Both the position numbers and the translations under genes were made by a program. Below are positions 18,205 to 52,320 of a DNA stretch of 64,000 nt, piece after piece; position 1 is the stretch's first letter, and every line of letters begins with the position of its first letter. Source of the DNA: an uncultured Planctomycetales bacterium (lineage in GTDB: Bacteria > Omnitrophota > Gorgyraeia > Gygaellales > Profunditerraquicolaceae); NCBI GenBank assembly GCA_964645795.1, contig CAZYCL010000005.1, positions 26,006-90,005 of the forward strand, written 5' to 3'. The notes under the pieces were generated by a model. The model did not search any database, had not been told where the DNA came from, and saw nothing but the letters and a program-made list of their open reading frames with translations.

Positions 18205-18295
18205 AGTCTTGGCTCCTTGTAATAATATTTTATATTATCTTGAGGAAAAGACTCCTGGTGCGTATAAAAAGATATATGGGTGCGAGGATAAAAAG

Positions 18296-18324
18296 ATTAT
18301 ATAACAGCTGGAAAGGCCGGTCAA
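18296..18324 (-). promoter_or_regulatory. Putative strong sigma70-like promoter upstream of the EF-G2-like gene
   Basis: On the minus strand: TTGACC (plus 18319..18324), a 17-nt spacer, TATAAT (plus 18296..18301). It is about 90 nt upstream of ATG 18204. Confidence 0.4.
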
Positions 18325-18355
18325 GGTTTAATAAGGAAAGCGGCGCCTTAAGGCT

Positions 18356-31704: not shown

Positions 31705-33638
31705 TCCTTTAGTTCGAGAGGATTATATTTGTAGTAGGCGAATATCGTATAGGCGGTACCCGCGACGGAACCGGTGCTGTGCCCCTTGGGGGTCCTCCAG
31801 CCATGCCCGGTATCTACATTATCAAGCGAGGCATAAGGCAGGCAGCTTTCCCCTTGGCCCGACGGCGAAGGGCTGGAGATAATCATCTTGCCCAGCTCTG
31901 CCAGATACATGTCGGCCTTTAGCTCATAGGTCCTGGCTTTGGCTATCGCTCCCTTCTTGAAATAATACTCGGCCATTATCCTGTATGAGAGGATCATCTG
32001 GGCGGTCCATTCCGGAGAAACTACCCCTCCGCGGCTGGTGTGGCGCTGGGCAGCGAAATCGAAACCTTTGACTGAGACGGTTTGGCCTTGCGGCCGCGCG
32101 TACTTTACTTCTACTGCGCAGTTCTTCTGTGCGAACTCCATGATCCTGTCTGGATTCATGCCTACTTCAAAAAGCTTTTCTGGACCGATGGCAGCTATCG
32201 ACCAGGCATAAGTGTCGGTGGCAATGGTCGAGTCGCCTTTGCCGCGCCTGATAGGCACCTCGCCCTTGGCGTAGGCGTAATTCAGCAGCCAGCTCAACGT
32301 CTTCTCAGCCGCCCCTTTATACATCTCCTTGCCGGTAAGCTTGTAGAGCATCCTAAAGAAGGCGTAGGCATCCAGGTTGTGTTCTGTAGAGTACCAATCT
32401 ATGCCCGGGCCTCCCCGCAGGCCTCCGTCATCATCCTCGCCCTGCAAATACATGACCCCTTGGGCGATCTGCTCGGCCAGCCCGAGATAATTGTTATCCT
32501 GGGTCTTAGAGGTGTACTGCACAATGGCTATCCCCAGCCAGACATTGGGCCCGACGTTAACGACGAACTCCGCAGGAGAGCCGTCATTGGCATAATAGGC
32601 GTTAAAGAATCTGCCGTCCGATCGTTTGGCGCGCCCGGAAAAGAAATCCAGGATCTTTTTGGCACGCTCATAATCTGCAGAATTGGTGTAAGCCTGCAGC
32701 ACCAGTGCCTGGTCATATAAGAACGCCCAATTCTCTACCTCGCTGTCACCCTCAAAGCTTATGACCAGGCCGGTCCTGGGGTTCTGATGGACTCTCAGCC
32801 ACCGGTACATCTTGTCGATATTGGCTTTTTCAAGGCTGGCCTTTTGGCGGTCCAGGCGCAGCAGGTCTTCGGCAATGGCATTTTCCTTGTTCTGGATAAA
32901 CACCAGCTGCTCCTGAAGGGCGCCCTTTTCCTTTGAGATCCTCTCTATCAGAGAGTTCAGTTTGTCGATCTGTACCAGGTTCCCTTTCTTCTCCTGATCT
33001 CGCCTTATCCTTTCCTCTTCGAGTGTGCGTATGCGCATCTCAGCTTCATGGATCTTTAGCTGCAGGTCCTCTCTTTCTTTGGCAGTCTCTTTTATCTTTT
33101 GCTTGGCAACGGTGGAATCCTGCAGGATCTTTACCAGCTGATCAACCAGGGCCTTATTGCCCTTTATCAACTGCATGTTGACGAAGCCGTTCAGGGCCAC
33201 CCCGATCAACAAAAAGGATATGACCGTCATCGTGACCGGGAAGAACAGCTTCCTGGCCCAGGCATAACGCATGATCTGGTTGTTCTGCCCGGCGTCTATC
33301 TCCTCATATTTGAGCCCGACCAAATACTTATTGTTGGCCGCTGGAACTTCTTCCACCCAGGTAACCGCGGTCATCGCCGTGACCGGGACCTTTAGGACCG
33401 GCATCTCCATCTCCAGTCCCAGTTTTACCTGTTTGCTCTTTATGGCCTGAGCTAATTCCTGGTTGAGATTATTTATCGCCAAACATATTCCGCCCCGGCT
33501 GACATTGTTGGTAAAACCCTGCAGCCATCCGGAGATAAATTTCTCGCTGTCGAGGCTCAACACCCTGAATTGGACGGGAAAGACAGAATCCAGGCGCAGG
33601 TAGCGGCGGCGGTTGCGCATGGGATCATTTTTATTCAT
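31701..33638 (-). CDS. PilZ-domain (c-di-GMP receptor) membrane protein fused to a coiled coil and a C-terminal (alpha/alpha)6 glycoside-hydrolase-like domain
   Basis: PilZ motifs RNRRRYLR (RxxxR) and NVSRGGI (D/NxSxxG). One TM helix (TMTVISFLLIGVALNGFV). A heptad-rich segment. The C-terminal ~380 aa is rich in aromatic residues in a six-hairpin-glycosidase-like pattern (WLGIAIVQY, DGGLRGG, TEHNLDAYAFF). Confidence 0.6.
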   Translation of the reverse strand: MNKNDPMRNRRRYLRLDSVFPVQFRVLSLDSEKFISGWLQGFTNNVSRGGICLAINNLNQELAQAIKSKQVKLGLEMEMPVLKVPVTAMTAVTWVEEVPAANNKYLVGLKYEEIDAGQNNQIMRYAWARKLFFPVTMTVISFLLIGVALNGFVNMQLIKGNKALVDQLVKILQDSTVAKQKIKETAKEREDLQLKIHEAEMRIRTLEEERIRRDQEKKGNLVQIDKLNSLIERISKEKGALQEQLVFIQNKENAIAEDLLRLDRQKASLEKANIDKMYRWLRVHQNPRTGLVISFEGDSEVENWAFLYDQALVLQAYTNSADYERAKKILDFFSGRAKRSDGRFFNAYYANDGSPAEFVVNVGPNVWLGIAIVQYTSKTQDNNYLGLAEQIAQGVMYLQGEDDDGGLRGGPGIDWYSTEHNLDAYAFFRMLYKLTGKEMYKGAAEKTLSWLLNYAYAKGEVPIRRGKGDSTIATDTYAWSIAAIGPEKLFEVGMNPDRIMEFAQKNCAVEVKYARPQGQTVSVKGFDFAAQRHTSRGGVVSPEWTAQMILSYRIMAEYYFKKGAIAKARTYELKADMYLAELGKMIISSPSPSGQGESCLPYASLDNVDTGHGWRTPKGHSTGSVAGTAYTIFAYYKYNPLELKE

Positions 33639-36019
33639 CAGCGGCTTTCCTTTTCTATGACCACCCTCTGCTTGATGCCCTTGGCGATCTCGCCGAACGA
33701 TGATTTGAAGCTCTGGTAATCTTCCTGGGGGATGCTTTCTTTAACGACCTGCGTCCTTTCCCTGAACTGGATCACTCGGCTGCCCCGGAGGCGGTAGCCG
33801 GATGAGAAACTAAACCACGGTGTCTTTTTGTCCACGTCTGCCGGGATATATTTTATAACAAAACCGTCCGGTAATGCAATCTCAAATATGGATTCCCTGA
33901 TCTGCGTTGCTCCGAAATCAATGGGGTAGCGGCGCTTATCCTTGGCTATCAGGGATGTATCAAGCCTGCCCAGCTGCGGCATTATCCTTAAATTTCCGGC
34001 AGCCGTAAAGTACTCCGGTCCGCTGAAAGCGTAAGACAAAATTATCGGCAGGTTTAAATCCTTCAGATTGTCTATCCTGTAACCGGCCAACCTTGAACCA
34101 ATGGAAATCTCCTGTATGCGCTCTTTGAGCTTTTCCTGGATAAGCTCCGGCTGGGTATATAGAAGCCAGTAGCGTTGTGCCTGATCGTAAATGCCCCTGG
34201 TGAAGATTTCTCTCTTGGCCTTAATAGTCTCATCGCCTTCCACGGTTATCCTAAGGGTCTGAAGAAGGCTGTTATGGCTGGCGTCTAAACGCGGGGTCTG
34301 GTCTATGCTGTAGCCTGAATCCCTAAAGACCATTACCTGACGGCCCTGGTCATCGCGCGGCAGGTCCTTGAAAGGGCATGTTTCTGCAGTAGGATCCATA
34401 AAAATGACCTGCGGGCCGAGGTCTAGCGCCGCGATGCAGTGGTTGAATATGCTCGAGGCAAACCCCTTGTCCGCATCATAATAATCCCGGGTGGATATCA
34501 GTACCGGATAAGCCTTCAACCCGGCCTCTCTTAACATGGATACCAACAGTATCGCCTGGTCTTTGCAGTCGCCGTACCTGTTCTTGTAGATATCGCTGGC
34601 GCTGTGCGGCTCATGCCCTGCCTGGCCGTACTCTACCGCTACATAACGGATCTTTTGCGCGCAAAAATTATATATGGCGCGCGCTTTTTCCTCCTGGCCT
34701 TTACGGCCACGCACCAGCCTTTTCACCTCGGCTTTAAGGCCCGCATCGCAGGCGATCTTCTCGCGCGCCAATCCCCACCACCAGTCATAAACCTCTTGCC
34801 ACGAAGAAAAGCTGGACACTAGTACCGATGGGTTGACGTGCGAGAACGGGGGCATATTGGCTTCGGGTATGATCTGGGGTATATCCTTGAACTTCCAGCG
34901 ATATACATCTTTATCCCCGCCCCTCGTCATCACCGGGCTCATCTGGGCGTTGAAGTCGTTGTACTCCTGGTTTACGGCTCTGACATGAAGCTTTCTGCCC
35001 TGGGGCAGACTGATGCTCAAATGCGCCTCAACAAGCGGCTCCTGTGACTGCAAAGGGTAGACCAGCGCAAAATCCTTATTGTTGACCAGCCGGCTGCGGT
35101 AGATCTTCAGTTTGTATTCGATGAAGACGCCTTCCGCGACTTCGGGAAAAGATATGATGAAGGCGCGCACATTGCTGTAAAGCGGGAAGTTCAGATATTT
35201 TGAGACGTCGCGGATGTGCCTGGTGCCTACTTCTACGACGCTGCCGTCGCTTTTTATGGTGCGGGCGTACTCCAGCTGGATGCGTTCGTAAGTAGAATCG
35301 TAATCAACCGCGGTCTCGGCAAACTCTTCTTTGCCCCGCTCGTTGATTATCTTGACGATATAGTGAAGGCTGGTGATCTGGGTATTCTGAGGAGTGATTT
35401 CGGTTGCCTCATCGGCGTAGAGCATGATGGCGCCCGCCTGAGGATATTTGTCCTGGGAAGGGCAGGCGCAGATCTTATCGTAAATCTTGCGGTCGATATC
35501 CTTTATATTAACGCAGCCGCTCTTTCTTTCGATCGCCTCGATACGCAAGGCAGCCATTGCGGCCAGGTCCTTATCCTTTATCTTGCGATGAATCTTTACT
35601 GCCTCATCGAAAAGATTGAGCTTCTCACAAGTAAGCGCGTGATAAAAAAGGGCCTGGTCGTCGCCAGCGTCAAACTTACTGAAGAACTCCAGCGCCCGGG
35701 TAAAATCCCCGGACCGGTAATTTGCGATAGCCAGATATCTGTCGCAGCGCGGGTCTTTCGATCTTTCAAACGCCGCTATCGCATCTTCGAAATCGCCGTG
35801 CGAATAGTAAAGCTTGCCCAGCTCAAAGAACAGGGCCTCGTCCTGCGGGGCCGAGGCAATGGATCTTTTATATTCCGCCGCCGCCTCTTTATAATACTGT
35901 TCGGACAATAACGCAAGCCTCTCGGCCTGGCCTGTTTGGCTTGATTGCGAACAACCCGCAAGAAAAATAAAAAAGCAGAGCAGATACAAAGAAATGCTGG
36001 GTTTGATCCTGTTCTTCAT
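33638..36019 (-). CDS. TPR + DUF3857 + transglutaminase-like cysteine protease domain lipoprotein
   Basis: Signal peptide with lipobox (FLAGCSQ), N-terminal TPR-like repeats, and a transglutaminase core YGDCKDQAILLVSMLR with downstream His/Asp. Confidence 0.55.
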   Translation of the reverse strand: MKNRIKPSISLYLLCFFIFLAGCSQSSQTGQAERLALLSEQYYKEAAAEYKRSIASAPQDEALFFELGKLYYSHGDFEDAIAAFERSKDPRCDRYLAIANYRSGDFTRALEFFSKFDAGDDQALFYHALTCEKLNLFDEAVKIHRKIKDKDLAAMAALRIEAIERKSGCVNIKDIDRKIYDKICACPSQDKYPQAGAIMLYADEATEITPQNTQITSLHYIVKIINERGKEEFAETAVDYDSTYERIQLEYARTIKSDGSVVEVGTRHIRDVSKYLNFPLYSNVRAFIISFPEVAEGVFIEYKLKIYRSRLVNNKDFALVYPLQSQEPLVEAHLSISLPQGRKLHVRAVNQEYNDFNAQMSPVMTRGGDKDVYRWKFKDIPQIIPEANMPPFSHVNPSVLVSSFSSWQEVYDWWWGLAREKIACDAGLKAEVKRLVRGRKGQEEKARAIYNFCAQKIRYVAVEYGQAGHEPHSASDIYKNRYGDCKDQAILLVSMLREAGLKAYPVLISTRDYYDADKGFASSIFNHCIAALDLGPQVIFMDPTAETCPFKDLPRDDQGRQVMVFRDSGYSIDQTPRLDASHNSLLQTLRITVEGDETIKAKREIFTRGIYDQAQRYWLLYTQPELIQEKLKERIQEISIGSRLAGYRIDNLKDLNLPIILSYAFSGPEYFTAAGNLRIMPQLGRLDTSLIAKDKRRYPIDFGATQIRESIFEIALPDGFVIKYIPADVDKKTPWFSFSSGYRLRGSRVIQFRERTQVVKESIPQEDYQSFKSSFGEIAKGIKQRVVIEKESR

Positions 36020-36022
36020 CTT

Positions 36023-37129
36023 TTACCGGCCTGTCGTGGAGTTCCGAGCGTAATTATAGTAAGAGTTGCAAGATCCCTCGGATGAGACCATGCATGGGCC
36101 AACCGGGTCTTGCGGCGTACAAGCCTTGCCAAAAAGCGGGCAGGCTTTCGGCAATATCAACCCTTTCAGGACATCGCCGCACCTGCACTTGCGCGGCATG
36201 CCAGCGGTATGGGTCTTAACCGAAGGCAGGAGTCCGGCGGCATCAAAATCGGACAGGCTTCTTTTGATAACAAGTCCGCTGTCGGCAATGACCCCCAGCC
36301 CCCGCCAAAGCGCGGCAGCGGGCTTGAACACCCGATAGATTATCTTTCTTGCGCGGGGGTTGCCGTTTGTTTTGACCAAACGGCTGTACTGGTTTTCCAA
36401 TACGGGCCTTGGTCTGTTTATGCCGCGGATAAGAAGGTAAAGGCCCTGCACGATGTCCAGGGGCTCAAATCCCGCGATACAACAGCTTATGCCGTGCTTT
36501 TTGGGAATAAATGCGTAGGGCCTGGTGCCGATTATCGCCGATACGTGCCCCGGGCAGAGAAACCCATCAAGGGCCAGCCTCTTGTCTTTAAGCAGATGCC
36601 TCAATGCCTGCGGCATGGTCTTTAGCGCACAGAGAAAAAATAGATTTTTTAACTTCTGTTTTCGGGCGGCCAGAATGCTGGCAGCAATGGTTGGGGCGGT
36701 GGTTTCAAATCCTACCGCAAGAAATATGACCCTTTTATCGGGGTTAAGCCTGGCGATCTTAAGGGCATCTATGGGAGAGTAAGCCAGGCGGACATTTCCG
36801 AAATGCGCCCTTTCTTTTTCCAGAGAAGAGCCGCTGCCCGGCACGCCTAACATATCGCCGAAGCTTACGATAAGGTTTTTTTCGTCTCCGGAAAGGGCGA
36901 TGGCTTGGTCAATATAAGACTGGTCGCTTACGCATACGGGGCAACCCGGGCCAGAGATAAGCCGCAGGCTCGCGGGTAAAAGCTTGTCCAGGCCGAACCT
37001 TAAGAAATTGTGAGTATGTGTGCCGCAGACCTCCATTATGCTGACTTGCCGCTTAGGCATCAACGCCTTTATCTTTGAAGCGACCTTCAATACCAGCTCT
37101 TTACTGCGGTACTCATCAACGTATCTCAT
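36023..37129 (-). CDS. hypD: Hydrogenase maturation factor HypD
   Basis: MEVCGTHTH, GPGCPVCV and C-terminal CPLFG...C motifs. Confidence 0.8.
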   Translation of the reverse strand: MRYVDEYRSKELVLKVASKIKALMPKRQVSIMEVCGTHTHNFLRFGLDKLLPASLRLISGPGCPVCVSDQSYIDQAIALSGDEKNLIVSFGDMLGVPGSGSSLEKERAHFGNVRLAYSPIDALKIARLNPDKRVIFLAVGFETTAPTIAASILAARKQKLKNLFFLCALKTMPQALRHLLKDKRLALDGFLCPGHVSAIIGTRPYAFIPKKHGISCCIAGFEPLDIVQGLYLLIRGINRPRPVLENQYSRLVKTNGNPRARKIIYRVFKPAAALWRGLGVIADSGLVIKRSLSDFDAAGLLPSVKTHTAGMPRKCRCGDVLKGLILPKACPLFGKACTPQDPVGPCMVSSEGSCNSYYNYARNSTTGR

Positions 37130-37325
37130 CTATGATCTTAAGGGTATCCTTGGCCCTGCGGGCATCTATCTTTTCAATGGCAAAGCCGGCGTGCACCAGC
37201 ACATAATCTCCCTTCTTCAGCCCGCAGAGAAGCTGAATGTTCACTTTTCTTCTAAGCCCCGAGCTTTCGACGCTGGCAAACTCTTCGCCTATTTCTTTGA
37301 CCTTCATGGGAATACCCAGACACAT
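37116..37325 (-). CDS. hypC: Hydrogenase maturation chaperone HypC
   Basis: 69 aa starting MCLGIP with an essential Cys2; OB-fold size. Confidence 0.75.
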   Translation of the reverse strand: MCLGIPMKVKEIGEEFASVESSGLRRKVNIQLLCGLKKGDYVLVHAGFAIEKIDARRAKDTLKIIDEIR

Positions 37326-37326
37326 A

Positions 37327-38451
37327 TCAACCTCCTGAAAAAGCCGCTATCACCGCCTGGCCAAGCGATATCCCTGAATCAGAGCAGGAAAGCTTTTTAT
37401 GGATGAAAACTTTAAATCCCGATTTATATAATAAGCCCAAAGCCAGCTTTAGTAAAATATTATTTTGGAATACCCCGCCGGACAAAACCACCTTTTCTAT
37501 GCCGCTGGCTTGCCTTATGCGCCTTGACAATAACAGGGACATCTGCGCTATGCTCAGATGGAATTTATAGGCCATCTCGGCCCTGGGCAGGCCTTTTTTG
37601 ATATCCGAGACTATCCCGCCAAAGATCCCCTGCGGGCGGATAATATAAGCGTTGGCGCGCCTGTCTAACGCAAAACCGTAGGCTTTGGCCCTGCCCCTGA
37701 AAAAAGACGCTTGCCTTTCCAGCTTGATCGCAAGCTCCGCCTCTAACCCAGCGGAAACCTCGCCCAATATGATAGCGGCGGCGGCATCAAAGAGCCTGCC
37801 CATGCTGCTGGAAAGCGGACAGTTTACCCCCTTTACCTGCATGCTTCGAATCAGGCGCCATTTGCGAAGAGAAATGAGACTGACAAACGGGATATCTGAT
37901 TTCAGGAAGTCGTTACCGTAAAGACCGTGAAGCCAGAAGCAGGCAAGCCGCCATGGCTCTGCGATCGCCCGTTCCCCTCCGATCAAAGGAACCTCTTCAA
38001 GATGGGCCAGCCTCCGGCAGCTCTTGTAATCACAGACCAAAAACTCCGCCCCCCAAAGACCGGAATCGGTCCCCATCCCCGTTCCATCAAAAGCCACCCC
38101 TATCACCTTTTCGTTCTTCAGGCCGTTCTCAGCCATGCATGAGGCAATATGCGCGTGATGGTGCCCTATGCCTATTGCCTTAATCCCGCCTAACCCGCCT
38201 TCTGAGACAAAAACGGTCGAACGGTAGCCGGGATGCAGGTCGTAGGCTGCGATGCGCGGACGCAGCTTCATAAACCTGTCGACATCCTTGACGAACGCCT
38301 GATAATCATCGTAAACACCCAGGTCATTATGGACCGGGCTCAGATATGCCGAGTTTTTCCTTACCAGGCATACCGTGTTCTTTGTGTGGCTGCCCGTGGC
38401 AAGCACGGTTGCAGGGGACCTAAAGGCTAGTTTTACGTCTGCGGCGCTCAA
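37327..38451 (-). CDS. hypF: HypF-like carbamoyltransferase, C-terminal Kae1/YgjD-like domain only; no acylphosphatase, Zn-finger or YrdC domains
   Basis: VLATGSHTKNTVCL at the start corresponds to the beginning of the HypF Kae1-like domain. HHHAHIASC metal site and VVLSGGVFQN motif. The upstream gene is an unrelated exonuclease, so the N-terminal half is not encoded here. Confidence 0.6.
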   Translation of the reverse strand: MSAADVKLAFRSPATVLATGSHTKNTVCLVRKNSAYLSPVHNDLGVYDDYQAFVKDVDRFMKLRPRIAAYDLHPGYRSTVFVSEGGLGGIKAIGIGHHHAHIASCMAENGLKNEKVIGVAFDGTGMGTDSGLWGAEFLVCDYKSCRRLAHLEEVPLIGGERAIAEPWRLACFWLHGLYGNDFLKSDIPFVSLISLRKWRLIRSMQVKGVNCPLSSSMGRLFDAAAAIILGEVSAGLEAELAIKLERQASFFRGRAKAYGFALDRRANAYIIRPQGIFGGIVSDIKKGLPRAEMAYKFHLSIAQMSLLLSRRIRQASGIEKVVLSGGVFQNNILLKLALGLLYKSGFKVFIHKKLSCSDSGISLGQAVIAAFSGG

Positions 38452-39278
38452 GGGACCATCTCCATATCGATAATATTGTCCACCCTGAATGTCCTTTCGT
38501 CCTTTTTCAAAGAACAGTACCCTATCAGGTAGAACTTATTATTGGTTTCTCTTACCTGGCGCGGAACGACTATGCGCTCGGATAACTGGGCATCGGTGCT
38601 GCCCAAATATTTTATCTTTATGCTTATCTTCTTATCGATGGCCTTCTGGATTTCGCCGACCTTGCGGTTATTGATGTCGTCAAGCAGGGTGGCATTGATG
38701 CCGAAGAGGCTGACGAATTTATCAAAATCATCTATGCCTTTCTGTTGAAGCATTTCCACAAACCTTAGAAAGACATCGTAGGTCAGCAGAACATCCGCCA
38801 GGGCACGGTGATCCTGCTTGGTCTTCACCCCCAGCTTCTCAACCACTGAAGATAATGCATACCTGTCCTGCCCCGGAAGGAGCCGGCGCGCCATTTTCAA
38901 GGCATCAACTACGATCAGGTCTTTCGGCAGGCAGGCGCCGATAAGAGAAAGCTCCTCTTTGATGAACTCCATATCGAAGCTGGCATTATAGGAGCACAGG
39001 CAGCTGCCTTCGATAAAATCCAGAAACCTTGGCAGCACATCCTTGGCTAGAGGCGCATCTTTTATCATATCCCGGCTTATGCGGTTTACCGCGTAAGCCG
39101 CCGGGGAAACCTCTCTTTGGGGATTTATAAGCGAGCTGAACTGGGCAATCGCCCTTTTGCCCTCAAACCTTAGAGCGGCTATCTCTATGATCCTGTCTCC
39201 GGCGCCAGCACAAAGTCCGGTGGTTTCAGTATCAAAGATAGTGAACTCGATCTCTCCAAGCTTCTTATGCATGCTCAT
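38448..39278 (-). CDS. DEDDh 3'-5' exonuclease (DnaQ/epsilon-like) fused to a C-terminal WYL-like domain
   Basis: Exo I FDTETTG, Exo II YNASFDMEF, Exo III HRALADV. The C-terminal 90 aa (IKIKYLGSTDAQLSERIVVPRQV...KFYLIGYCSLKKDERTFRVDNIIDMEMV) matches the WYL consensus (WYL.A.c...R.FR.DRI). Confidence 0.6.
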   Translation of the reverse strand: MSMHKKLGEIEFTIFDTETTGLCAGAGDRIIEIAALRFEGKRAIAQFSSLINPQREVSPAAYAVNRISRDMIKDAPLAKDVLPRFLDFIEGSCLCSYNASFDMEFIKEELSLIGACLPKDLIVVDALKMARRLLPGQDRYALSSVVEKLGVKTKQDHRALADVLLTYDVFLRFVEMLQQKGIDDFDKFVSLFGINATLLDDINNRKVGEIQKAIDKKISIKIKYLGSTDAQLSERIVVPRQVRETNNKFYLIGYCSLKKDERTFRVDNIIDMEMVP

Positions 39279-40170
39279 GCCTTGAGGCTATGTAGGCGGG
39301 GATCATCTTTACCGGATGATACCCCAGCTTTGTGCGCCTGAGGTTCTCCAATCCCGAATCGTCCATTATGTTAACGAACTCAAAATCCTTCAGGTCGCTG
39401 CAAAAAGACGAAAAGATGAACTGGCTCAGGCCTTTGATCTTCAGGTCCGCCACCTCATAAGCTATGCAAAAGGTCTGCCTATCGATTACAAAACCCAGAC
39501 TGAATGCCTTAACGGCTTTACCTATCAACACTACCCTGCCGCTCAGCTCCAAGGACCTCCATGAGTTGAATATGAAATCCAGACACCTGAATCCGTCTTC
39601 CATAAGTCCGCAGTAAACCGCGTCCCGGTTGGATTCCTTTCTTGAGCTCGCCCATTCCTTATAAAGCCGCAGGCAGCCGCCTTTTCGCGAAGCAGAAAGC
39701 GGCAGATAACAAAACTCATTATTCCTTACGAAATGGTTGAAGCAGGCGCGCTGAGATTTGTATTTATTGCCCGGCAGCCCTGCGATATCGCTTCTTTTGC
39801 ACAGGTATTCCGGATATTTTTCGCTTATCTTATAACCCCAGCGGCTGAATCTGTCGATATCGGACTCCTGTAAATTCTCAATGCGGGAAATCTGCGGGTT
39901 CCTGCGGTTTATCCCGTCCATGAATTCAAATGATTCCATCAACGCGGCAGGCGAGATGTTTTTACCCAGCGGGGGAAGGTACATGAACGCCCCCGAGCCG
40001 TCAACAAAGAAAACGCACAAGTTGCCTGAAACCACAGACCACCTGATATCAAAGATGGCTTTCCATATATAAATATTTTCGAAGGTGTATACCGATAAGT
40101 CGTTTGCACAAAAACCCAGAAAATCCTTGAATAGCTGCCTGTCTTTGGCTGCCAGACTCTTTGTTTTCAT
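39265..40170 (-). CDS. DUF2156-family protein (homolog of the MprF C-terminal domain; putative aminoacyl-tRNA-dependent aminoacyltransferase)
   Basis: 301 aa with a tandem GNAT-like pattern similar to the LPG-synthase C-terminal domain; no TM domain. Confidence 0.5.
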   Translation of the reverse strand: MKTKSLAAKDRQLFKDFLGFCANDLSVYTFENIYIWKAIFDIRWSVVSGNLCVFFVDGSGAFMYLPPLGKNISPAALMESFEFMDGINRRNPQISRIENLQESDIDRFSRWGYKISEKYPEYLCKRSDIAGLPGNKYKSQRACFNHFVRNNEFCYLPLSASRKGGCLRLYKEWASSRKESNRDAVYCGLMEDGFRCLDFIFNSWRSLELSGRVVLIGKAVKAFSLGFVIDRQTFCIAYEVADLKIKGLSQFIFSSFCSDLKDFEFVNIMDDSGLENLRRTKLGYHPVKMIPAYIASRHEHA

Positions 40171-40664
40171 CAGCCTATGTCCAGCTCAAACAAGTTGGTT
40201 ACGTTATCGTAGGATTGGATCAGATGCGGGTTGTTCTCTAAAATCCGCCGGTTCCGGGGCCGAATGAAATACTCCTTAAGGTAATTAAGATATTCGTCTT
40301 TCAGGGCGCCGTGAAAATGCTCTTTTATAAAGGGGCAGGCCGGATGCAGGGCAAGATAAACCTTTTCGTCCTGCCGGTTGATGACAAAAGGATATAGCCG
40401 GCATTCAAACGGCCTCTTATCATAAATGCCGCATCTGTTGGTCGCCTGGTTAAGAAACGGGCAGATAAAGCCCTGCCCTTCGGGACCGGGCTTCAGCTTT
40501 AACCTTTTATCAGCCAGAATAAGTCCGGCATTCTCTTTACCGGCTGCCAACCCCGCGCCCTCTTCATCAAGCAGCCGCACGCTCCATACCGAGCGTTCTT
40601 GGCTGAACCTGCAGCAGCCTTGACAAGCAAGGCAATAGTCGCTCTTTAGCAGCTGCCGTATCAT
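40170..40664 (-). CDS. YkgJ-family Cys-cluster (CxxCxxCC) putative Fe/Zn-binding protein
   Basis: CLACQGCC near the N-terminus, with further Cys pairs (CPF...C...C, CPF). Confidence 0.5.
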   Translation of the reverse strand: MIRQLLKSDYCLACQGCCRFSQERSVWSVRLLDEEGAGLAAGKENAGLILADKRLKLKPGPEGQGFICPFLNQATNRCGIYDKRPFECRLYPFVINRQDEKVYLALHPACPFIKEHFHGALKDEYLNYLKEYFIRPRNRRILENNPHLIQSYDNVTNLFELDIG

Positions 40665-40981
40665 TTTACGATACTACCGTTGGCTACCCGGCGCAATGTA
40701 GTGATTATCGATATCCCGTTTTCATCGGAAGCCGCAAGCAGCATGCCCTGGCTCTCAATGCCCCTAAGCAGCGCGGGCTCCAGGTTGTCGACAACGATCA
40801 CCTGCTTACCTAATAAATCCTCTTTCTGATAAGACCCTCTTATGCCGGCCACCAGCTGCTTAGTCTTATCTCCCAGGTCAACAGTGACAACATACAGCTT
40901 ATCCGCATTGGGATGCTCGCTAACTTCTTTTATTTCAGCAACTTTCAACTCTAATTTTTTGAAATCCTCTATACTGATCAT
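40661..40981 (-). CDS. tRNA-binding protein (Trbp111/CsaA-like OB-fold)
   Basis: 106 aa, LKVAEIKEVSEHPNADKLYVVTVDLG...VAGI pattern of the Myf/EMAP domain. GGGAGGAAG RBS 4 nt upstream. Confidence 0.65.
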   Translation of the reverse strand: MISIEDFKKLELKVAEIKEVSEHPNADKLYVVTVDLGDKTKQLVAGIRGSYQKEDLLGKQVIVVDNLEPALLRGIESQGMLLAASDENGISIITTLRRVANGSIVK

Positions 40982-41093
40982 TCTTCCTCCCTGGATTAAG
41001 CTATCTTGCTCAAACCCGGCTCGTTAGGGCCGAGTCATTAATGATATCACGCTCCGCTTAAAATAACAAGCTCAAAGGCTTCCAGGATAGCTA

Positions 41094-41122
41094 TTGCAAT
41101 TGAGGCAAGTAACTAATATAAT
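41094..41122 (+). promoter_or_regulatory. Sigma70-like promoter for the plus-strand GT-C/GT2 pair
   Basis: TTGCAA (41094..41099), a 17-nt spacer, TATAAT (41117..41122). It lies 31 nt upstream of ATG 41153, in the divergent intergenic region. Confidence 0.45.
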
Positions 41123-41152
41123 TATCTAATCCAGGCAAATCAGGTCAAAACT

Positions 41153-43489
41153 ATGATCTCCGGAAAAAAAGCTCTTCCTCTTATTGCCCTCTGTGCTATC
41201 CTAATCTTTCATCTTGGTGCTAACTTCATCTGGCTAAGGCTTGATAAAACCGACCTCCTCTATGACGCCCACCACCATTATCTCTTCAGCCTTACAGTCT
41301 TTGACCAGATGCGCTCCCATATACTGCCTTCGTTGTCCGAGGTCCTGGAGCGCATCGGGCCGCATCACCGTTGGCACGGTATATTCCCCGGATACGCAAC
41401 TGCCCCTTTCTACTTTTTCTTCGGCGTCAGCCAAGATGCCGGGGTGATGGCAAGCTCTCTTATATTTCTTACCGTACTGATCCTGGCTACTTACGGAATA
41501 GGCAAGACGTCGCTGGACCAAAAATCCGGCGTATTGTCTGCGTTCATCGTGGGCATGTATCCGGCAGTTTTCAACCACTCAAGGCTCTATATGCTCGATC
41601 TTCCGCTGACCTCCATGGTAGCCCTTAGCATATATTTGCTTTTAAAATCAGATGACCTGAGGCTAAAAAGGTACTTTCTGCTATTTTCCGTTGCTGCGGG
41701 CCTCGGCCTTCTTTGTAAATTCAACTTCCTGATCTTTGTCTTCGGCCCCTTTATTTATATTTTGATACGCGCGCTGTTGGTCCGGGCGGCAGGCAGCAAG
41801 AAGCGCATAGCCGTTAATCTGCTGCTTGCCCTGGGGATCGCCGCGCTCATAATCATGCCGTTTTTGGCGCTCAAGCACAACGAGCTAAAAATGAGGATCT
41901 ATGAATTCTCCAGGCTAAACCCTGCTTACTCTGGTGGGTTTAGCTCATGGGCAGAGGCCTTAAAGGGGTGGGCGGCGTCATTTACCGACTATCTGTTATG
42001 GGCGGTCCCGGAGACCGTAAACACATTGACATCTTTCATGTTTTTTTTACTGTTGGCGCTGGCGCTCCCGTTTTTTCTGATAAAAAAGTGCCGCTTCAAG
42101 GCAGCCATCGTTCTCTGGGCCTTCGCGCCGTTTGTGATACTGGCCTCTTGCTTCCTTTGTCAGAATATCAACAGGTACCTGATGCCCAGCCTGCCGGCCT
42201 TGGCAGTCGTCTGCGGCGTAGCGATCTCTTCCATAACCAATAGCGCCATTCGTAAGGCAACTACCGTGCTTATTGTCTTCTTTGGGATATGGCAATATCT
42301 GGTCATATCTTTCAATCTTGGCTTCTGCGTGCCGGACGAGAAGCTTACTATCCCCATTCGCATCAACAGGCAATGGTCGGCCTTTACAGAGCCTTCTCTT
42401 GACATTAAGCTGCTTAATCCAAGGATAAACCCCGGCTATAGAAACGGCGCTGCCGCGGCCAGTTATCCGGACCGTCATAACCTGCCCTATCGGCCGATCC
42501 TGGAGCGGATACTTGCCTCTTCGTCGGGGATGGCCGTGCGCCCCATCAATCTCTTCTTTACCGACGATATCCCGGAAATCTATGAACCGATGGAGTATCT
42601 GGCCTTTGCTGGCCGCCTTCCGTTGCTTTTTTCGATCAATCCGCGCGTCTTCGAGCCCTCCAGGTGGAGCTGCCAAAACGTTGCGCTTTCAATCTCCGGC
42701 GCAGATTATATCATCGCCGCGCAAAACACGGTTTCCGCAGACCTGCCTGACCGGATCAAAAAAAACATTGCCGCCTCCAGGAACTATCTGGACAGGTATC
42801 TGGATTCGTTCGCGCTTCTTGGCTCCTGGCCTTTGGGGCAGGATAACCGGCTCCTGCTTTACCGGCGCAAAGAAGGGTACTCGGAAATATCCAGCGGCCG
42901 GCTGCGGCTGTACTTTCGCAACGGCATTATAAAGCTTTTCTCTGCCTGCGGACCGGTCCTGATCAATGAAGGCCTGGAGGCATGGGTTTACGCCGGGAAT
43001 AACCGGTACAGCTCTTGCCTGGGCAATTGGAGCATGCATAATATATCCGGTGATGAGATCAGGGCCGAGGTGTCCTGGCCTGATATAAATACCAGGCAGC
43101 GCTGGGTCCTGCGCCTGCAGAAAGAAAAACTGCTTGTCAACATTAAGACCTCTACGGCCAGGGCGCCCCATCCGCAAGGAGCAGGGTACTCTCTATACCT
43201 GAACCCAAAATATGTGCGCTTCTCTACGGCTGGCCTTAAGCCGCGGCTGCTTCAGAAAGGGGTGATTGCTGACAACGTCGTGGCTCTTGAGCAAGAGGAG
43301 CTGCCTCTTTGGTTTCATGCGGGCCGGATGGACGGATTTAAGTTTTTTTCTCAGGCGCCCGTGCAGAAGATGACGTTAGCTGCGCAAAAAGAGTTTGTAA
43401 GGATAAATGTTTATGCTTGGCCGGTCAACTCCGAGATGACAAAAGAGCTGGCGTTCTATCTATGGTTTGGTGCGGATAATACAAAGTAA
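41153..43489 (+). CDS. GT-C fold glycosyltransferase (ArnT/PMT-like, families GT39/GT83) with a large C-terminal soluble domain
   Basis: About 11 TM helices at the N-terminus with a first-loop DxxxD-type motif; 778 aa. Confidence 0.6.
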   Translation: MISGKKALPLIALCAILIFHLGANFIWLRLDKTDLLYDAHHHYLFSLTVFDQMRSHILPSLSEVLERIGPHHRWHGIFPGYATAPFYFFFGVSQDAGVMASSLIFLTVLILATYGIGKTSLDQKSGVLSAFIVGMYPAVFNHSRLYMLDLPLTSMVALSIYLLLKSDDLRLKRYFLLFSVAAGLGLLCKFNFLIFVFGPFIYILIRALLVRAAGSKKRIAVNLLLALGIAALIIMPFLALKHNELKMRIYEFSRLNPAYSGGFSSWAEALKGWAASFTDYLLWAVPETVNTLTSFMFFLLLALALPFFLIKKCRFKAAIVLWAFAPFVILASCFLCQNINRYLMPSLPALAVVCGVAISSITNSAIRKATTVLIVFFGIWQYLVISFNLGFCVPDEKLTIPIRINRQWSAFTEPSLDIKLLNPRINPGYRNGAAAASYPDRHNLPYRPILERILASSSGMAVRPINLFFTDDIPEIYEPMEYLAFAGRLPLLFSINPRVFEPSRWSCQNVALSISGADYIIAAQNTVSADLPDRIKKNIAASRNYLDRYLDSFALLGSWPLGQDNRLLLYRRKEGYSEISSGRLRLYFRNGIIKLFSACGPVLINEGLEAWVYAGNNRYSSCLGNWSMHNISGDEIRAEVSWPDINTRQRWVLRLQKEKLLVNIKTSTARAPHPQGAGYSLYLNPKYVRFSTAGLKPRLLQKGVIADNVVALEQEELPLWFHAGRMDGFKFFSQAPVQKMTLAAQKEFVRINVYAWPVNSEMTKELAFYLWFGADNTK

Positions 43490-43493
43490 ACGC

Positions 43494-44327
43494 ATGGTCA
43501 GCGTAATAATTATCACTTATAACCGCGCCCGGCTCCTTAAAAGGTGCCTCGATAGCCTGTTGGCGCAGGCTGCCGCCGGGGCCGCGGAAATTATCGTCGT
43601 CAATAACGGCTCCACCGATAATACCGCGGAACTGTTAGGCAATGAGTACTGCGGCCGGATAAAGCTCATTGACACTGCCCCGAAAAGCTTGTCCGCCTGT
43701 AAACAGATGGCTTTCGATGAAAGCCGGGCAGATACCGTTGTTTTTCTCGATGACGACTGCGTGCCCAAGGAGGGATGGCTGGAGCTCATTAAAAAGTCCT
43801 GCCGCACTTATGACATACTGGGAGGGGCGGTGCTGGCTGAAGAGGGGACTGAATTTCCTCGATGGTGGAGATCCTCCTTGAACTGGCTTATCGGGATAAA
43901 CCCCGATCCCGGCTTCTCCTATCTTCCGCTGGGCAGCAATATTGTCTTCAACAGGAAGGTGCTGGAAAAGATCAACCCCATGCTTAAATCCTCGGTCTCT
44001 GTGACAATCGGGCCCCTGCCTTACGCCGAAGACTATCTGCGAGTAAGGTTAGCGCTTGCCTGCGGATTCTCAATAGGCTTCATCAAAGAGGTGGCGGTCT
44101 TTCACTATGTTCCTGCCCAGAGACTAAAAATTGGCTATCTGATAAAAAGAAGCTGTTATGAGGGAACTGCGCGCGCGCGGGTAGAAAGATCTATCCCCTT
44201 ACTTTTGCGCTCTTTTCTGGGCATCTTCTATAACCCCGTCCTATTGCTCTTGTCTGCCGATATCAATAGGCTCTTCCGCTTCCTGGCTTCAGCAAGCTAT
44301 ATCTTAAGCTACCATCGCAAGCGTTAA
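43494..44327 (+). CDS. Glycosyltransferase family 2
   Basis: MVSVIIITYNRARLLKRCLDSL, VVNNGSTD and LDDD motifs. Start placed at ATG 43494, just after the upstream stop. Confidence 0.65.
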   Translation: MVSVIIITYNRARLLKRCLDSLLAQAAAGAAEIIVVNNGSTDNTAELLGNEYCGRIKLIDTAPKSLSACKQMAFDESRADTVVFLDDDCVPKEGWLELIKKSCRTYDILGGAVLAEEGTEFPRWWRSSLNWLIGINPDPGFSYLPLGSNIVFNRKVLEKINPMLKSSVSVTIGPLPYAEDYLRVRLALACGFSIGFIKEVAVFHYVPAQRLKIGYLIKRSCYEGTARARVERSIPLLLRSFLGIFYNPVLLLLSADINRLFRFLASASYILSYHRKR

Positions 44328-45340
44328 TCCGCATTTACAATCTTGTGTAATGCCAGTCCTTCGCAGATAGCACAATCAAAGTTGCAGTCGCATTTACCGT
44401 CCCGGATGATCTCTCGAGAGCGTCTGGCCTCATCCGAGGTCCAGATATCCATAAATGACTCCTCCAGCATGTTGCCTATGGTCGCGCTAGACCAGCAGAA
44501 CTTCACGGAGCCGTCGCTTAACAATTTAACTGAAGTGACTGCCTGGTAGCATTCCAGGCGCCCGCAGCTGCGCGTAAAAGGACTATCCTTGCGCCTGACT
44601 GCCCTGGCAAGGCTACCTCTTAACCAGACAAGCCAGCGGGAGTAATCGCCCCTCTCTTTTTCGCTGAGCGCAAACCTTCGGTTGACGGACTCATCCGGTG
44701 TATCGCTAAACGTTTGTATAAAATGCCCTATCCCGTGTCTTAAGGCAAATAATTTCACGCCCAACAGGTCCAAAGGTTTTATCTCTTTGGACATAACCGA
44801 AACCAGGGAAAATGAAATAGCGGGAAACTTCTTCCTGACCTTAATGCAATTGGAAAAGGCCTCTTTAAAAAGCCGCATTTCGAAGCTCCTCAGCCTTTTG
44901 AATTTTCTCGGGTCAAGAGTATCTATGGAAATGTTTATCCTGTTCACTCCTGCCCTGATTGTCTCTTCAAGGAAACCGTAATCTCTGAAGCGCAGCCCGT
45001 TGGTACATAATTCGATGGTCTTTATTTTGCATTTTGCCGCATGCCTGATGAGACTCTGGAATCCCGGCCAGATCGTAGCCTCTCCGCCGCTTAAGCAAAG
45101 CCGTTGCGGTATACCCCACGCGCATATCTCGCCGATGAACTCTGACAGGCGTTCGAAAGTAAGCAGGCTGCCGGTTTTCTCCTGGTGATAGCAGTAAGCG
45201 CAACGGCTGTTGCAGGATGTAGTAATAGAAATCATTAGGTCCATAGGGGCAAGGCTGGGGGCGCAGTCAAGATACGACTTCTTGATTAGTGACTGCTTTT
45301 CTTCTGATATGGCCTTACGCATGGAAATCGCGCTTATCAA
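44324..45340 (-). CDS. Radical SAM / SPASM-domain enzyme
   Basis: CNSRCAYC core, and a C-terminal SPASM pattern CGRLEC...FCW...CDCNFDCAIC. Confidence 0.75.
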   Translation of the reverse strand: MISAISMRKAISEEKQSLIKKSYLDCAPSLAPMDLMISITTSCNSRCAYCYHQEKTGSLLTFERLSEFIGEICAWGIPQRLCLSGGEATIWPGFQSLIRHAAKCKIKTIELCTNGLRFRDYGFLEETIRAGVNRINISIDTLDPRKFKRLRSFEMRLFKEAFSNCIKVRKKFPAISFSLVSVMSKEIKPLDLLGVKLFALRHGIGHFIQTFSDTPDESVNRRFALSEKERGDYSRWLVWLRGSLARAVRRKDSPFTRSCGRLECYQAVTSVKLLSDGSVKFCWSSATIGNMLEESFMDIWTSDEARRSREIIRDGKCDCNFDCAICEGLALHKIVNAD

Positions 45341-46709
45341 CCGCCTTAAAAAAATATAAAGCTGCCAGATAAAGAATGGGGGCGATGATCAATGAAGGGA
45401 AAAACTCTGTCTTAAAGTAACGAATGAGCGCAAACATAATCAAACCGGATAAAACCGGCTTAATCGAAAAGTATGCCAAGGCCTTGGAGTATTCCTTTGT
45501 TGCTTTCCTGAAGTACGCTAAAACCTGCCCTGTAGCATAAGCGACCAGCGATACAAACGCAGCTCCCAGGAAACCATAACGCGGGATCAACAACAAGTTA
45601 AGCGCGACACTAATGGCCGCGGAGATGCCCGTGAAGAATGGGTCCAGCCTTTGCTCGTGTGCGGCGATGAGAATAACATTGACCGCAACCCCCGCGAATA
45701 CGAAGATTTCGCCCCACATCAGGACCGCAAAAGCAGGCGAGGCGGAAATGAACCTTTCTCCGTATAGCAGGGAAATAATCTGCTTTGAAAACATGGTCGA
45801 GTAAAAAGCCAGGGGGATTATTATTATCAAAAAGTATTTTATCAGCATGCGGTAACGTTTTTTAAACTCCTCCTTTGAAGAATCGAAGGATTTTGATAAC
45901 AGTGGCAGCATCGAAATAGCGAATGCCGCCGGAATGACGTTTAAGCTCTCGGAAATCCTGGTCCCCGCAGAATATAAACCCAGAGAAACATCGCCGTTGA
46001 ACTTGTAGAGCATTATGTGGTCAAAGCGATGGTAGATAAAGATAAAGATTGTGCTCAAGCCCAATGGCCAGGATTCCCCGAAGATCCTGCGCCACAAAGC
46101 TGGTTCTAATTTAAATACGGGCTTTATGAGCCTATCGGCAAAGAACATCAGCGCAACAAGCGCCGCCAGATATATGAATACCGAGTAAAAATAATAGTCT
46201 ATTAGGCCTTTGCCCCTGGAGGCTAGCCCAAGCACAAGCAGTATCATCAGCGCTTTTTTAGATAAATTCAAGAAGACAACATATCCCATTTTCAGCTTAA
46301 ACTGGAATACCGCTTCATAGACACAGCTTATGGAAAAAACCAGCATAGTAAGCGTTGCGAATGCCGATAAAACCAGCATTCCTGCGTCCGGACGGATAAA
46401 CCAAACGGTGACCCAGAACGCCAGCATTGCGCACAACGATATTGCGGCCTGTATCATAATGCAATTTCCGAAAAGCAGGGGTGCGAATCTTTCCTGCCTT
46501 GACATCTCGCGTATCAAGATCGGTCTGAACAGCTGGCTGTTAAGGGAAGAGAGGAGGAAAAGGAAAACCGAGAGAAAAGAAAGCTTGCCGAAGCCGCTTT
46601 CTCCGAAGCAACGGGCTATAGAAGCCGCCAGCACCAAACCGATTAGGTTCTCCGCGAAATTGCCTGCGATAATAACGAAGCTATTTTTTATTATTTTTTC
46701 CATTACCAT
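45315..46709 (-). CDS. wzx: Wzx-type oligosaccharide flippase (MOP superfamily)
   Basis: 464 aa, about 12-14 TM helices, polysaccharide-biosynthesis-protein pattern. Confidence 0.6.
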   Translation of the reverse strand: MVMEKIIKNSFVIIAGNFAENLIGLVLAASIARCFGESGFGKLSFLSVFLFLLSSLNSQLFRPILIREMSRQERFAPLLFGNCIMIQAAISLCAMLAFWVTVWFIRPDAGMLVLSAFATLTMLVFSISCVYEAVFQFKLKMGYVVFLNLSKKALMILLVLGLASRGKGLIDYYFYSVFIYLAALVALMFFADRLIKPVFKLEPALWRRIFGESWPLGLSTIFIFIYHRFDHIMLYKFNGDVSLGLYSAGTRISESLNVIPAAFAISMLPLLSKSFDSSKEEFKKRYRMLIKYFLIIIIPLAFYSTMFSKQIISLLYGERFISASPAFAVLMWGEIFVFAGVAVNVILIAAHEQRLDPFFTGISAAISVALNLLLIPRYGFLGAAFVSLVAYATGQVLAYFRKATKEYSKALAYFSIKPVLSGLIMFALIRYFKTEFFPSLIIAPILYLAALYFFKAVDKRDFHA

Positions 46710-47658: not shown

Positions 47659-47665
47659 GGTCTGA

Positions 47666-49611: not shown

Positions 49612-49614
49612 AAT

Positions 49615-52319: not shown

Positions 52320-52320
52320 C

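Follow-up and report, generated by a model that had tools for sequence, protein, structure and literature searches.

A 64,000-nucleotide stretch of DNA from an uncultured Planctomycetales bacterium, placed by the GTDB in the Omnitrophota (contig CAZYCL010000005.1, positions 26,006 to 90,005; the whole stretch is referred to below as the window), carries on its minus strand a tight block of four genes in which a stand-alone DUF2156 protein is encoded together with a small tRNA-binding protein, a YkgJ-family cysteine-cluster protein and an exonuclease. An earlier interpretation made without database searches (the sequence-only reading) had described the first three of these genes as a putative aminoacyl-tRNA-dependent transferase cassette, and their open reading frames (ORFs) do lie on the minus strand where it had placed them, at 40661-40981, 40170-40664 and 39265-40170. 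This three-gene cassette is correct as far as it goes; a fourth conserved gene, encoding an exonuclease with a WYL domain, had been overlooked. The features of the locus, in the direction of transcription, are the following:

40982..41152, minus strand: intergenic region between the cassette and the divergent PMT-family gene, likely the operon promoter region
40661..40981, minus strand: tRNA-binding gene 1, 106 amino acids, OB-fold, of the Trbp111 / methionyl-tRNA synthetase (MetRS) C-terminal domain type
40170..40664, minus strand: YkgJ-family cysteine-cluster gene 2, 164 amino acids, CxxCxxCC plus four more Cys
39265..40170, minus strand: DUF2156 gene 3, 301 amino acids, soluble tandem-GNAT protein of the BT_3689 (2HQY) subfamily
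38448..39278, minus strand: exonuclease gene 4, 274-276 amino acids, DEDDh 3'-5' exonuclease with a C-terminal WYL domain

Genes 1 and 2 overlap in an ATGA, genes 2 and 3 overlap by one base, and the start of gene 4 overlaps the DUF2156 stop by 8-14 nt. A GGAGG Shine-Dalgarno sequence is located 5 nt ahead of the gene 1 ATG at 40981, and a spacer of 171 nt separates this gene from the divergently transcribed PMT-family gene. This spacer (40982..41152) is likely to be the promoter region of the minus-strand operon; sigma-70-like hexamer pairs can be found at 41148-41121 (TTGACC-16-GATAAT) and at 41069-41041, these being consensus matches only, in a number not significantly greater than in shuffled sequences. 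The GC content of the cassette is that of its surroundings, and none of proteins 1-3 contains a hydrophobic segment of transmembrane strength, the top 19-residue Kyte-Doolittle value being 1.49. All three are real genes: the genomes of at least 80 Omnitrophota species contain orthologues at 43-55% identity.

The arrangement is conserved across the phylum. Scanning one genome per GTDB species resulted in at least 167 DUF2156 relatives, and the best 80 loci were analysed by calling their ORFs and using the four proteins of the window as queries against these. Of the 80 Omnitrophota species loci, 69 contain the complete tight block with all four genes in the same order: the cysteine-cluster gene lies immediately 5' of the DUF2156 gene in 77-78 of the 80 (median gap -14 nt), the tRNA_bind gene immediately 5' of the cysteine-cluster gene in 71-73 loci out of approximately 78 that were assessable (median gap -4 nt, with a gap of exactly -4 nt being the commonest, in 53 loci), and the exonuclease gene immediately 3' of the DUF2156 gene in 73-78 of the 80 (median gap -8 nt), most junctions within the block being overlaps. 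Two further loci without a visible tRNA_bind gene are interrupted by contig ends. The DUF2156 homologues, whose named sources are Candidatus Omnitrophota metagenome-assembled genomes (MAGs), are approximately 295-317 amino acids long and 46-55% identical to the window protein, with pairwise identities among orthologues of 43-93% (median 54%).

Outside the block, no family at position -3 occurs in more than 36 of the 69 loci and three families share position +2 (29/26/12), while the upstream neighbours differ from genome to genome and include V-type ATPase genes, a porin-like protein, elongation factor G (EF-G) or, as in the window, glycan genes. Since the flanks change while the four genes stay together, the block constitutes a conserved operon core and not just residual synteny; it is single-copy and in a broadly syntenic position in at least 167 species representatives. 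That a whole phylum should keep its DUF2156 gene and its free tRNA_bind gene, each present in one copy, in the same translationally coupled operon is unlikely to be a coincidence, with the caveat that this locus was singled out precisely for its DUF2156 / tRNA_bind pairing. The literature searched contained no description of this operon and no reported link between DUF2156 and a Trbp111-type protein; the operon architecture can be regarded as undescribed, while its domains are known and its genes have already been annotated automatically.

The product of gene 3, a soluble protein with an isoelectric point of 8.9, matches PF09924 (LPG_synthase_C) over its full length with 78.7 bits (cut-off 27.5), residues 27-295 corresponding to profile positions 10-297 of 298, which bears out its assignment to DUF2156 in the sequence-only reading. 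When each half of the protein was scanned separately, PF09924 was again the only family matched even at E<=10, and a canonical Acetyltransf family signature was found in neither GNAT half at that threshold. The AlphaFold2 model of the 301-amino-acid protein (pLDDT 89.6, pTM 0.86) has a tandem-GNAT fold, and its top Foldseek match is 2HQY, the Bacteroides thetaiotaomicron protein BT_3689 (TM 0.81-0.85, E ~1e-24). This is followed by the MprF C-domains 5VRV, 4V36, 6LV0 and 4V34/35 (TM ~0.62, 10-16% identity, E 1e-12 to 1e-10, probability 1.00), then by the aminoacyl-tRNA-dependent peptide synthases Sba18 and Sbb17 and by FemX (TM 0.57), whereas CoA (coenzyme A)-dependent tandem GNATs rank behind the aminoacyl-tRNA transferases (~1e-7).

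Sequence comparison with the PDB is more selective. The single gene 3 protein retrieves only 2HQY with phmmer (E 2e-26), and the hidden Markov model (HMM) profile of the Omnitrophota orthologues (alignment A1) likewise only 2HQY (E 2e-42), with no MprF chain in the PDB appearing even at E<=10. A broader subfamily profile reaches the lysyl-phosphatidylglycerol synthase (LysPGS) of B. licheniformis, 4V36, weakly (E 0.018), in an alignment that takes in a helix, GKKRAGLRAIYNRF, and a C-terminal motif, GLRSFKEKYKPV. All 150 of the 150 best subfamily representatives match the Omnitrophota HMM, with up to 152 bits, and 19 invariant columns are common to the subfamily, residues E239, G247, N267, D271, G273, K281, Y284 and P286 being invariant in the corresponding alignment (A3). 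With a full PF09924 match but 2HQY as its sole sequence match in the PDB, the gene 3 product is therefore a bona fide DUF2156 member of the BT_3689 subfamily and not of the MprF/VlmA type, meaning that the earlier description of a stand-alone soluble DUF2156 protein (301 amino acids, domain only) stands while its proposed likeness to MprF and VlmA does not hold at the subfamily level.

With BT_3689 and the Helicobacter pylori protein HPB8_1270 it shares the stand-alone length of approximately 300 amino acids, the full-length PF09924 architecture and the common invariant residues, although it is only ~25% identical to BT_3689. The family, the tandem-GNAT fold and a basic helix, alpha(+), between the GNAT halves are also shared with the MprF C-domain, ErdS, ErgS and VlmA. 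In contrast with MprF proper, however, it has no N-terminal multi-pass flippase domain and the conserved block includes no membrane-protein gene, nor does it have the membrane domain or the aminoacyl-tRNA synthetase fusion that are found in MprF and ErdS. A FemABX or murein role, an alternative that the sequence-only reading had itself raised, was rejected: FemABX enzymes depend on aminoacyl-tRNA and have the same tandem-GNAT fold, but the gene 3 product has no PF02388 match, shows only 8-9% identity to them and has no murein-synthesis genes among its conserved neighbours.

In DUF2156 aminoacyl-tRNA transferases the positively charged alpha(+) helix, located between GNAT I and GNAT II, binds the tRNA acceptor stem, and a catalytic Arg contacts the alpha-carbonyl of the aminoacyl group. 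In the gene 3 model this helix spans residues 135-150, NKYKSQRACFNHFVRN, in which K138, R141, N145 and F147 show at least 90% conservation among 81 DUF2156 sequences; it aligns (GKK...R...N.F) with the 4V36 helix given above and is also conserved in BT_3689, as KGKKFQAKRNHINRF. The gene 3 helix is homologous to that of LysPGS, with tRNA binding as its candidate role. Between strand 4 and helix 3 of GNAT II the protein has a loop, IKGLS (consensus IKGLA), that is similar to GNAT motif A; since a Gly occupies this loop position in MprF too, the likeness does not discriminate.

Gene 1 encodes what is, by sequence, a canonical Trbp111 / MetRS-C module. The 106-amino-acid protein matches PF01588 (tRNA_bind) with 97.4 bits (cut-off 27), confirming the earlier Trbp111-like call, and its matches in the PDB include the C-domain of Pyrococcus abyssi MetRS (1MKH, 1e-29), Trbp111 (1PYB, 4e-22), YgjH (2e-21) and the Aquifex aeolicus MetRS beta subunit (8VTZ), while CsaA is reached merely at 1e-7. 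Across 74 orthologues an LRGxESQGM motif shows conservation of at least 90%. In all these respects, as a stand-alone OB-fold protein of ~106-111 amino acids with PF01588 and LRGxESQGM, it resembles A. aeolicus Trbp111, MetRS beta or the MetRS C-domain and E. coli YgjH, but unlike these it is located in an operon with a DUF2156 enzyme and not beside metG or alone. A scan for the KMSKS motif revealed no MetRS gene in the window or in the loci collected.

The product of gene 2 matches PF03692 (CxxCxxCC) with 39.1 bits (cut-off 23), in agreement with its earlier identification as a YkgJ-type protein, and the same family is matched by 28 of 28 aligned members. In 79 orthologues each of eight cysteines (C11, C14, C17, C18, C68, C78, C88 and C110) is conserved to at least 90%, and the protein probably binds Fe-S or Zn. 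A homologue search resulted in 259 matches; among the 120 listed, the named ones carry the annotation 'YkgJ family cysteine cluster protein' and come from Omnitrophota/Omnitrophica MAGs, except for one titled 'bacterium', and the orthologue group thus looks restricted to the Omnitrophota. No solved relative was found by sequence or fold, Foldseek returning nothing at E<=0.001 for an AlphaFold2 model of poor quality (pLDDT 66.5, with the cluster region below 50).

The sole characterised relatives found in the wider superfamily, FliB and DpdM, both methylate primary amines. FliB is a [4Fe-4S], S-adenosylmethionine (SAM)-dependent flagellin lysine N-methylase that has a CX4CX3CC motif and a total of eight conserved cysteines (PMC8598068), and the phage protein DpdM, a DUF3109 member and YkgJ homologue, is a preQ1 N-methyltransferase (bioRxiv 10.1101/2023.04.13.536721). 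The gene 2 product resembles FliB in its N-terminal CxxCxxCC-type motif and in having eight conserved cysteines in all, but it does not match the NCBIfam FliB model, and DUF3109 is matched merely at E 0.085 and in one of 28 family members. No SAM-binding feature was identified in its 164 amino acids. A methyltransferase activity should therefore be regarded as a lead and not as a result. It is suggestive that the partner of the DUF2156 subfamily is of an amine-modifying type in both lineages (a GNAT in Bacteroidales, a YkgJ-type protein in Omnitrophota), which would fit the capping of a newly installed alpha-amino group but does not prove it.

The product of gene 4 matches PF00929 with 120 bits and the WYL family PF13280 with 45.5 bits, the WYL domain being missing from 19 of 78 orthologues. 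Its closest matches in the PDB are the Thermotoga maritima PolC-type exonuclease 2P1J (3e-31) and Pol III epsilon, which are DNA proofreading enzymes, making RNase T-like trimming of tRNA 3' ends by this protein unlikely.

Gene 4 is followed in the window by the C-terminal half of hypF and then by hypC and hypD (36023-38451, minus strand). The TTG start of hypF overlaps the exonuclease stop, and the gene encodes only the Kae1-like C-terminal half of HypF (374 amino acids; PF17788 and PF22521; TIGR00143 positions 384-740), with no acylphosphatase, Zn-finger or YrdC part upstream of it; a homologue consisting only of HypF_C is present 3' of the cassette in 32 of the 80 Omnitrophota loci. Beyond these genes, a downstream block comprising a DUF3857/transglutaminase-core protein (~790 amino acids), a ~645-amino-acid protein and an HhH-GPD glycosylase recurs in the three genomes compared (window 31701-36019; L004/L006 13908-18916). 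The ~645-amino-acid protein has a weak PilZ match, with none on record in L006, and the block is followed by an M20 peptidase in two of the three genomes and by a hexokinase-like gene in L006. Between this block and the cassette lie hypFCD in the window and pabB/pabC-like genes elsewhere. On the other side, a protein of 500-550 amino acids without a Pfam match and ending in Phe, possibly an outer-membrane porin, is encoded directly 5' of the cassette in 36 of the 69 loci (e.g., L004 7667-9175 and L076 5533-7176) but not in the window. Several MAGs that serve as GTDB representatives and are titled 'uncultured Planctomycetales' or 'Margulisiibacteriota' (L008-L010, L023, L024, L043, L054 and others) carry the Omnitrophota-type cassette at 46-51% identity, and such titles probably reflect loose taxonomy rather than spread to other phyla.

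The BT_3689-type subfamily as a whole is large, comprising 6,856 representative clusters at 50% identity (1,681 at E<=1e-30), and elsewhere it occurs in a different setting. In Bacteroides the gene order is lrgA, lrgB, DUF2156 and a 338-amino-acid Acetyltransf_9 GNAT, with pta-ackA divergent (e.g., L088 4809-7948), and the context of the Bacteroidales branch was determined in 80 metagenomic loci (L090-L169). Bacteroidales BT_3689 genes thus have a GNAT fused or adjacent, together with lrgAB and pta-ackA, whereas the Omnitrophota genes are coupled to tRNA-binding, cysteine-cluster and exonuclease genes; neither the window nor the other Omnitrophota loci have the classical GNAT partner, the CxxC and exonuclease genes being the neighbours there. 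No fusion of DUF2156 to tRNA_bind, CxxC or exonuclease domains was found among the 150 best subfamily representatives or the 120 best CxxC homologues. In 11 loci of the Bacteroidales branch the DUF2156 gene has that of a class I/II aminotransferase next to it, and one of ten long representatives tested (P0297) is a fusion of DUF2156 with an M18 aminopeptidase.

For the Omnitrophota operon we tentatively favour, at somewhat less than an even chance, an aminoacyl-tRNA-dependent aminoacyl transfer in which the Trbp111-like protein would serve as a tRNA-capture subunit in trans and the cysteine-cluster protein as a third subunit. All biochemically characterised DUF2156 members named in the literature read (MprF/aaPGS, ErdS, ErgS and VlmA) use aminoacyl-tRNA, and free-standing fungal ErgS is an active transferase. 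Such a transfer is further favoured by the full-length PF09924 match, by the aminoacyl-tRNA transferases that come directly after 2HQY in the Foldseek ranking, by the conserved basic helix, by the strong genetic linkage with a tRNA-binding protein and by the high isoelectric point and solubility of the DUF2156 protein. When the aspartyl-tRNA synthetase to which it is fused in ErdS is missing, the DUF2156 domain has weak activity, which makes a tRNA-capturing subunit in trans mechanistically sensible. No known DUF2156 aminoacyl-tRNA transferase with a Trbp111-type partner was found in the literature searched. The basic helix (residues 135-150) of the DUF2156 protein would dock the acceptor stem of the charged tRNA, and the enzyme would move the aminoacyl group to a hydroxyl or amine of a soluble or peripheral acceptor, with the small OB-fold protein capturing the tRNA, a task that falls to a fused aminoacyl-tRNA synthetase in ErdS and LysX. 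The translationally coupled cysteine-cluster protein might be redox-active, structural or a modifier of the newly installed amine. What is established is the identity of the domains, their fold, the conservation of the helix, the linkage of the genes across the phylum and the overlap of their reading frames; the donor, the formation of a complex, the acceptor and the parts played by the cysteine-cluster protein and the exonuclease are what we infer here.

The indirect evidence on the donor conflicts, the operon link to a tRNA-binding protein standing against CoA in the closest structure, and a number of observations weigh against aminoacyl-tRNA. The closest relative of gene 3 both by sequence and by fold, 2HQY, is a CoA-containing protein, with ligand COA recorded for the crystal in a survey of Protein Structure Initiative (PSI) structures (PMC2954221). 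For HPB8_1270, Tejada-Arranz et al. reported that deletion partly lowers the acetylation of four RNase J lysines, and these authors, citing 2HQY, termed the protein most likely an acetyltransferase (PMC10700544). In the Bacteroidales branch a classical GNAT gene stands next to that of DUF2156 in 58 of 73 Bacteroidales-type loci; among the 150 best subfamily representatives, 39 exceed ~390 amino acids in length, seven of the ten long ones tested being DUF2156-GNAT fusions; and none of the 80 branch loci has a tRNA_bind, CxxC or DEDDh neighbour. The pairing of DUF2156 with a Trbp111-like gene noted by the sequence-only reading therefore holds in the Omnitrophota (71 of ~78 assessable loci) but not in the Bacteroidales branch, and the tRNA-binding link is Omnitrophota-specific. 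Even within the Omnitrophota a tRNA_bind gene is truly missing from the neighbouring position in approximately 5 of the 78 assessable loci. In the profile comparison with 4V36 only GNAT I with the helix and the GL(R/K)xxKxxYxP motif are aligned, leaving the aminoacyl-handling residues unmapped. No Rfam family (T-box or other riboswitch) was found at E<=1 in 36000-42000 and no tRNA gene within the window, the cassette being accompanied by no aminoacyl-tRNA synthetase gene, tRNA gene, T-box or candidate hydrolase partner. Gene 1 itself could have a different task. Its product reaches the NCBIfam model of MetRS subunit beta, TIGR00399 (metG_C_term), at the borderline (116.9 bits against a cut-off of 116.65), and the phenylalanyl-tRNA synthetase beta subunit (PheT) of GCA_041651035.1 (L004 832-2874), a protein of 680 amino acids with its B3_4 domain starting from residue 106, lacks PF01588. 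A housekeeping role in trans is therefore possible: the free tRNA_bind protein might compensate for a PheT without an OB domain, and Omnitrophota may use a free OB-fold protein as a general synthetase cofactor. The presence of an OB-fold tRNA-binding protein in the operon is thus confirmed, while its description as 'dedicated' is not.

Taken together, CoA in 2HQY and the acetylation report for HPB8_1270 make an acyl-CoA donor a serious and indeed the main rival, one that the sequence-only reading had not considered, and with the Bacteroidales GNAT context added it becomes a real possibility for the whole subfamily; the aminoacyl-tRNA-dependent interpretation is thus only partly supported overall. 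In its simplest form, which we consider rather unlikely although it should be taken seriously, the substrate would be unrelated to tRNA and the protein would be an N-acyltransferase acting on protein lysines or on a small-molecule amine, beside a housekeeping tRNA-binding gene equivalent to MetRS-beta/Trbp111. The occurrence of CoA in the sole PDB sequence match of the family profile, the active-site residues that are invariant across the subfamily, the Bacteroidales context of GNAT and pta-ackA with no tRNA gene, the threshold match to TIGR00399 and the PheT without an OB domain all fit this explanation. Against it, a single DUF2156 gene and a single free tRNA_bind gene have a low chance of sharing one translationally coupled operon and of remaining together among orthologues 43-93% identical whose flanks differ; the basic helix, which in MprF-type enzymes binds tRNA, is strictly conserved; and neither half of the protein matches any canonical Acetyltransf family even at E<=10. 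Furthermore, the 3'-phospho-ADP moiety of CoA could mimic a tRNA 3' end, and the H. pylori effect is partial and redundant with RimI and acetyl-phosphate (PMC10700544).

An acyl-CoA donor may also be combined with a tRNA-linked substrate, the enzyme acylating the amino group of aminoacyl-tRNA or a tRNA nucleoside, or passing an aminoacyl group from tRNA to the CoA thiol, with the Trbp111-like protein presenting the tRNA. GNAT enzymes that acetylate aminoacyl-tRNA or tRNA exist, as in the case of the TacT/AtaT toxins, TmcA and Elp3. Such an activity would reconcile CoA in 2HQY with the conserved alpha(+) helix and the operon link, and the YkgJ superfamily includes, in DpdM, a modifier of preQ1, a deazaguanine base that is also found in tRNA. 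We nevertheless consider it distinctly unlikely: it is wholly inferential and has no DUF2156 precedent, a tRNA-binding partner is missing from the members in Bacteroidales and H. pylori, and the exonuclease resembles DNA proofreading enzymes (PolC-type, epsilon) and not RNase T. Equally improbable in our view is its fuller version, a tRNA-linked acyl-transfer machine in which a Trbp111-like dimer would bring (aminoacyl-)tRNA to a CoA-binding BT_3689-type tandem GNAT with a FliB/DpdM-superfamily Fe-S partner; its chemistry might be N-acylation of aminoacyl-tRNA or, alternatively, aminoacyl transfer from tRNA to CoA or to an acceptor of a novel kind, with the amine then being capped. Least probable of all, and given little credence here, is the explanation that the genes have no joint function and represent frozen synteny, or that they form a defence or toxin-antitoxin-like module (GNAT, WYL and DEDDh), possibly a mobile immune one. 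The WYL and DEDDh domains match PADLOC models linked to CRISPR and DRT systems, and the downstream synteny of DUF3857-transglutaminase, PilZ-like, HhH-GPD and M20 peptidase genes is partly conserved too, but PADLOC gives no match for genes 1-3. A single-copy, syntenic and GC-matched block with mostly overlapping junctions and a core that is constant while its flanks vary behaves as part of the core genome and not as a defence island, and the defence or toxin-antitoxin module was therefore rejected.

Returning to the aminoacyl-tRNA-dependent transfer, two acceptors had been suggested from the surroundings in the window, the local glycan and a product of a KamA operon, neither of which belongs to the conserved neighbours of the block. 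The glycan context, with PMT, GT2 and radical-SAM genes upstream, is that of the window, other Omnitrophota having V-type ATPase subunits, a porin-like protein without a Pfam match, or EF-G there, and since it is not conserved the glycan was rejected as an acceptor. The glycan-type cluster itself flanks the cassette at 41153-52442, encoding a 778-amino-acid PMT-family glycosyltransferase, several GT2 and GT4 proteins, a Polysacc_synt flippase and radical-SAM/SPASM proteins, in an arrangement that varies among Omnitrophota genomes. A beta-amino-acid product of KamA was rejected as unsupported, since the gene lies at a distance of ~20 kb and does not occur within 8 kb on either side of the block in the other loci. 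This KamA-like gene (18356-19528) is part of a four-gene run on the minus strand (16252-21519), which encodes an EF-G paralogue of 650 amino acids, the KamA-like radical-SAM homologue of lysine-2,3-aminomutase (390 amino acids) and two ATP-grasp enzymes similar to D-Ala-D-Ala ligase.

Stand-alone DUF2156 proteins of the BT_3689 type are found in gut Bacteroides and in H. pylori, among other bacteria, and none of them has a biochemically established reaction. For this subfamily the question is whether the donor is aminoacyl-tRNA, which all DUF2156 enzymes characterised so far use, or acyl-CoA, to which the CoA of 2HQY and the work on H. pylori point. Of the genomic contexts found, that of the Omnitrophota operon is the first to tie the subfamily to a tRNA-binding protein, and as such it constitutes a phylum-wide genetic clue to the donor question and not a demonstrated new system, with its three small soluble proteins making that question directly testable. 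If the tRNA link is false, the locus would be an ordinary acetyltransferase located beside a housekeeping tRNA-binding factor. The tRNA-linked acyl-transfer machine, if true, would be a new DUF2156 chemistry and would reveal the function of the BT_3689 subfamily. More generally, if the tRNA link is true, the operon would represent a new diversion of charged tRNA from translation, one that relies on a tRNA-capture subunit in trans instead of a fusion to an aminoacyl-tRNA synthetase, in a phylum of mostly uncultured nanobacteria.

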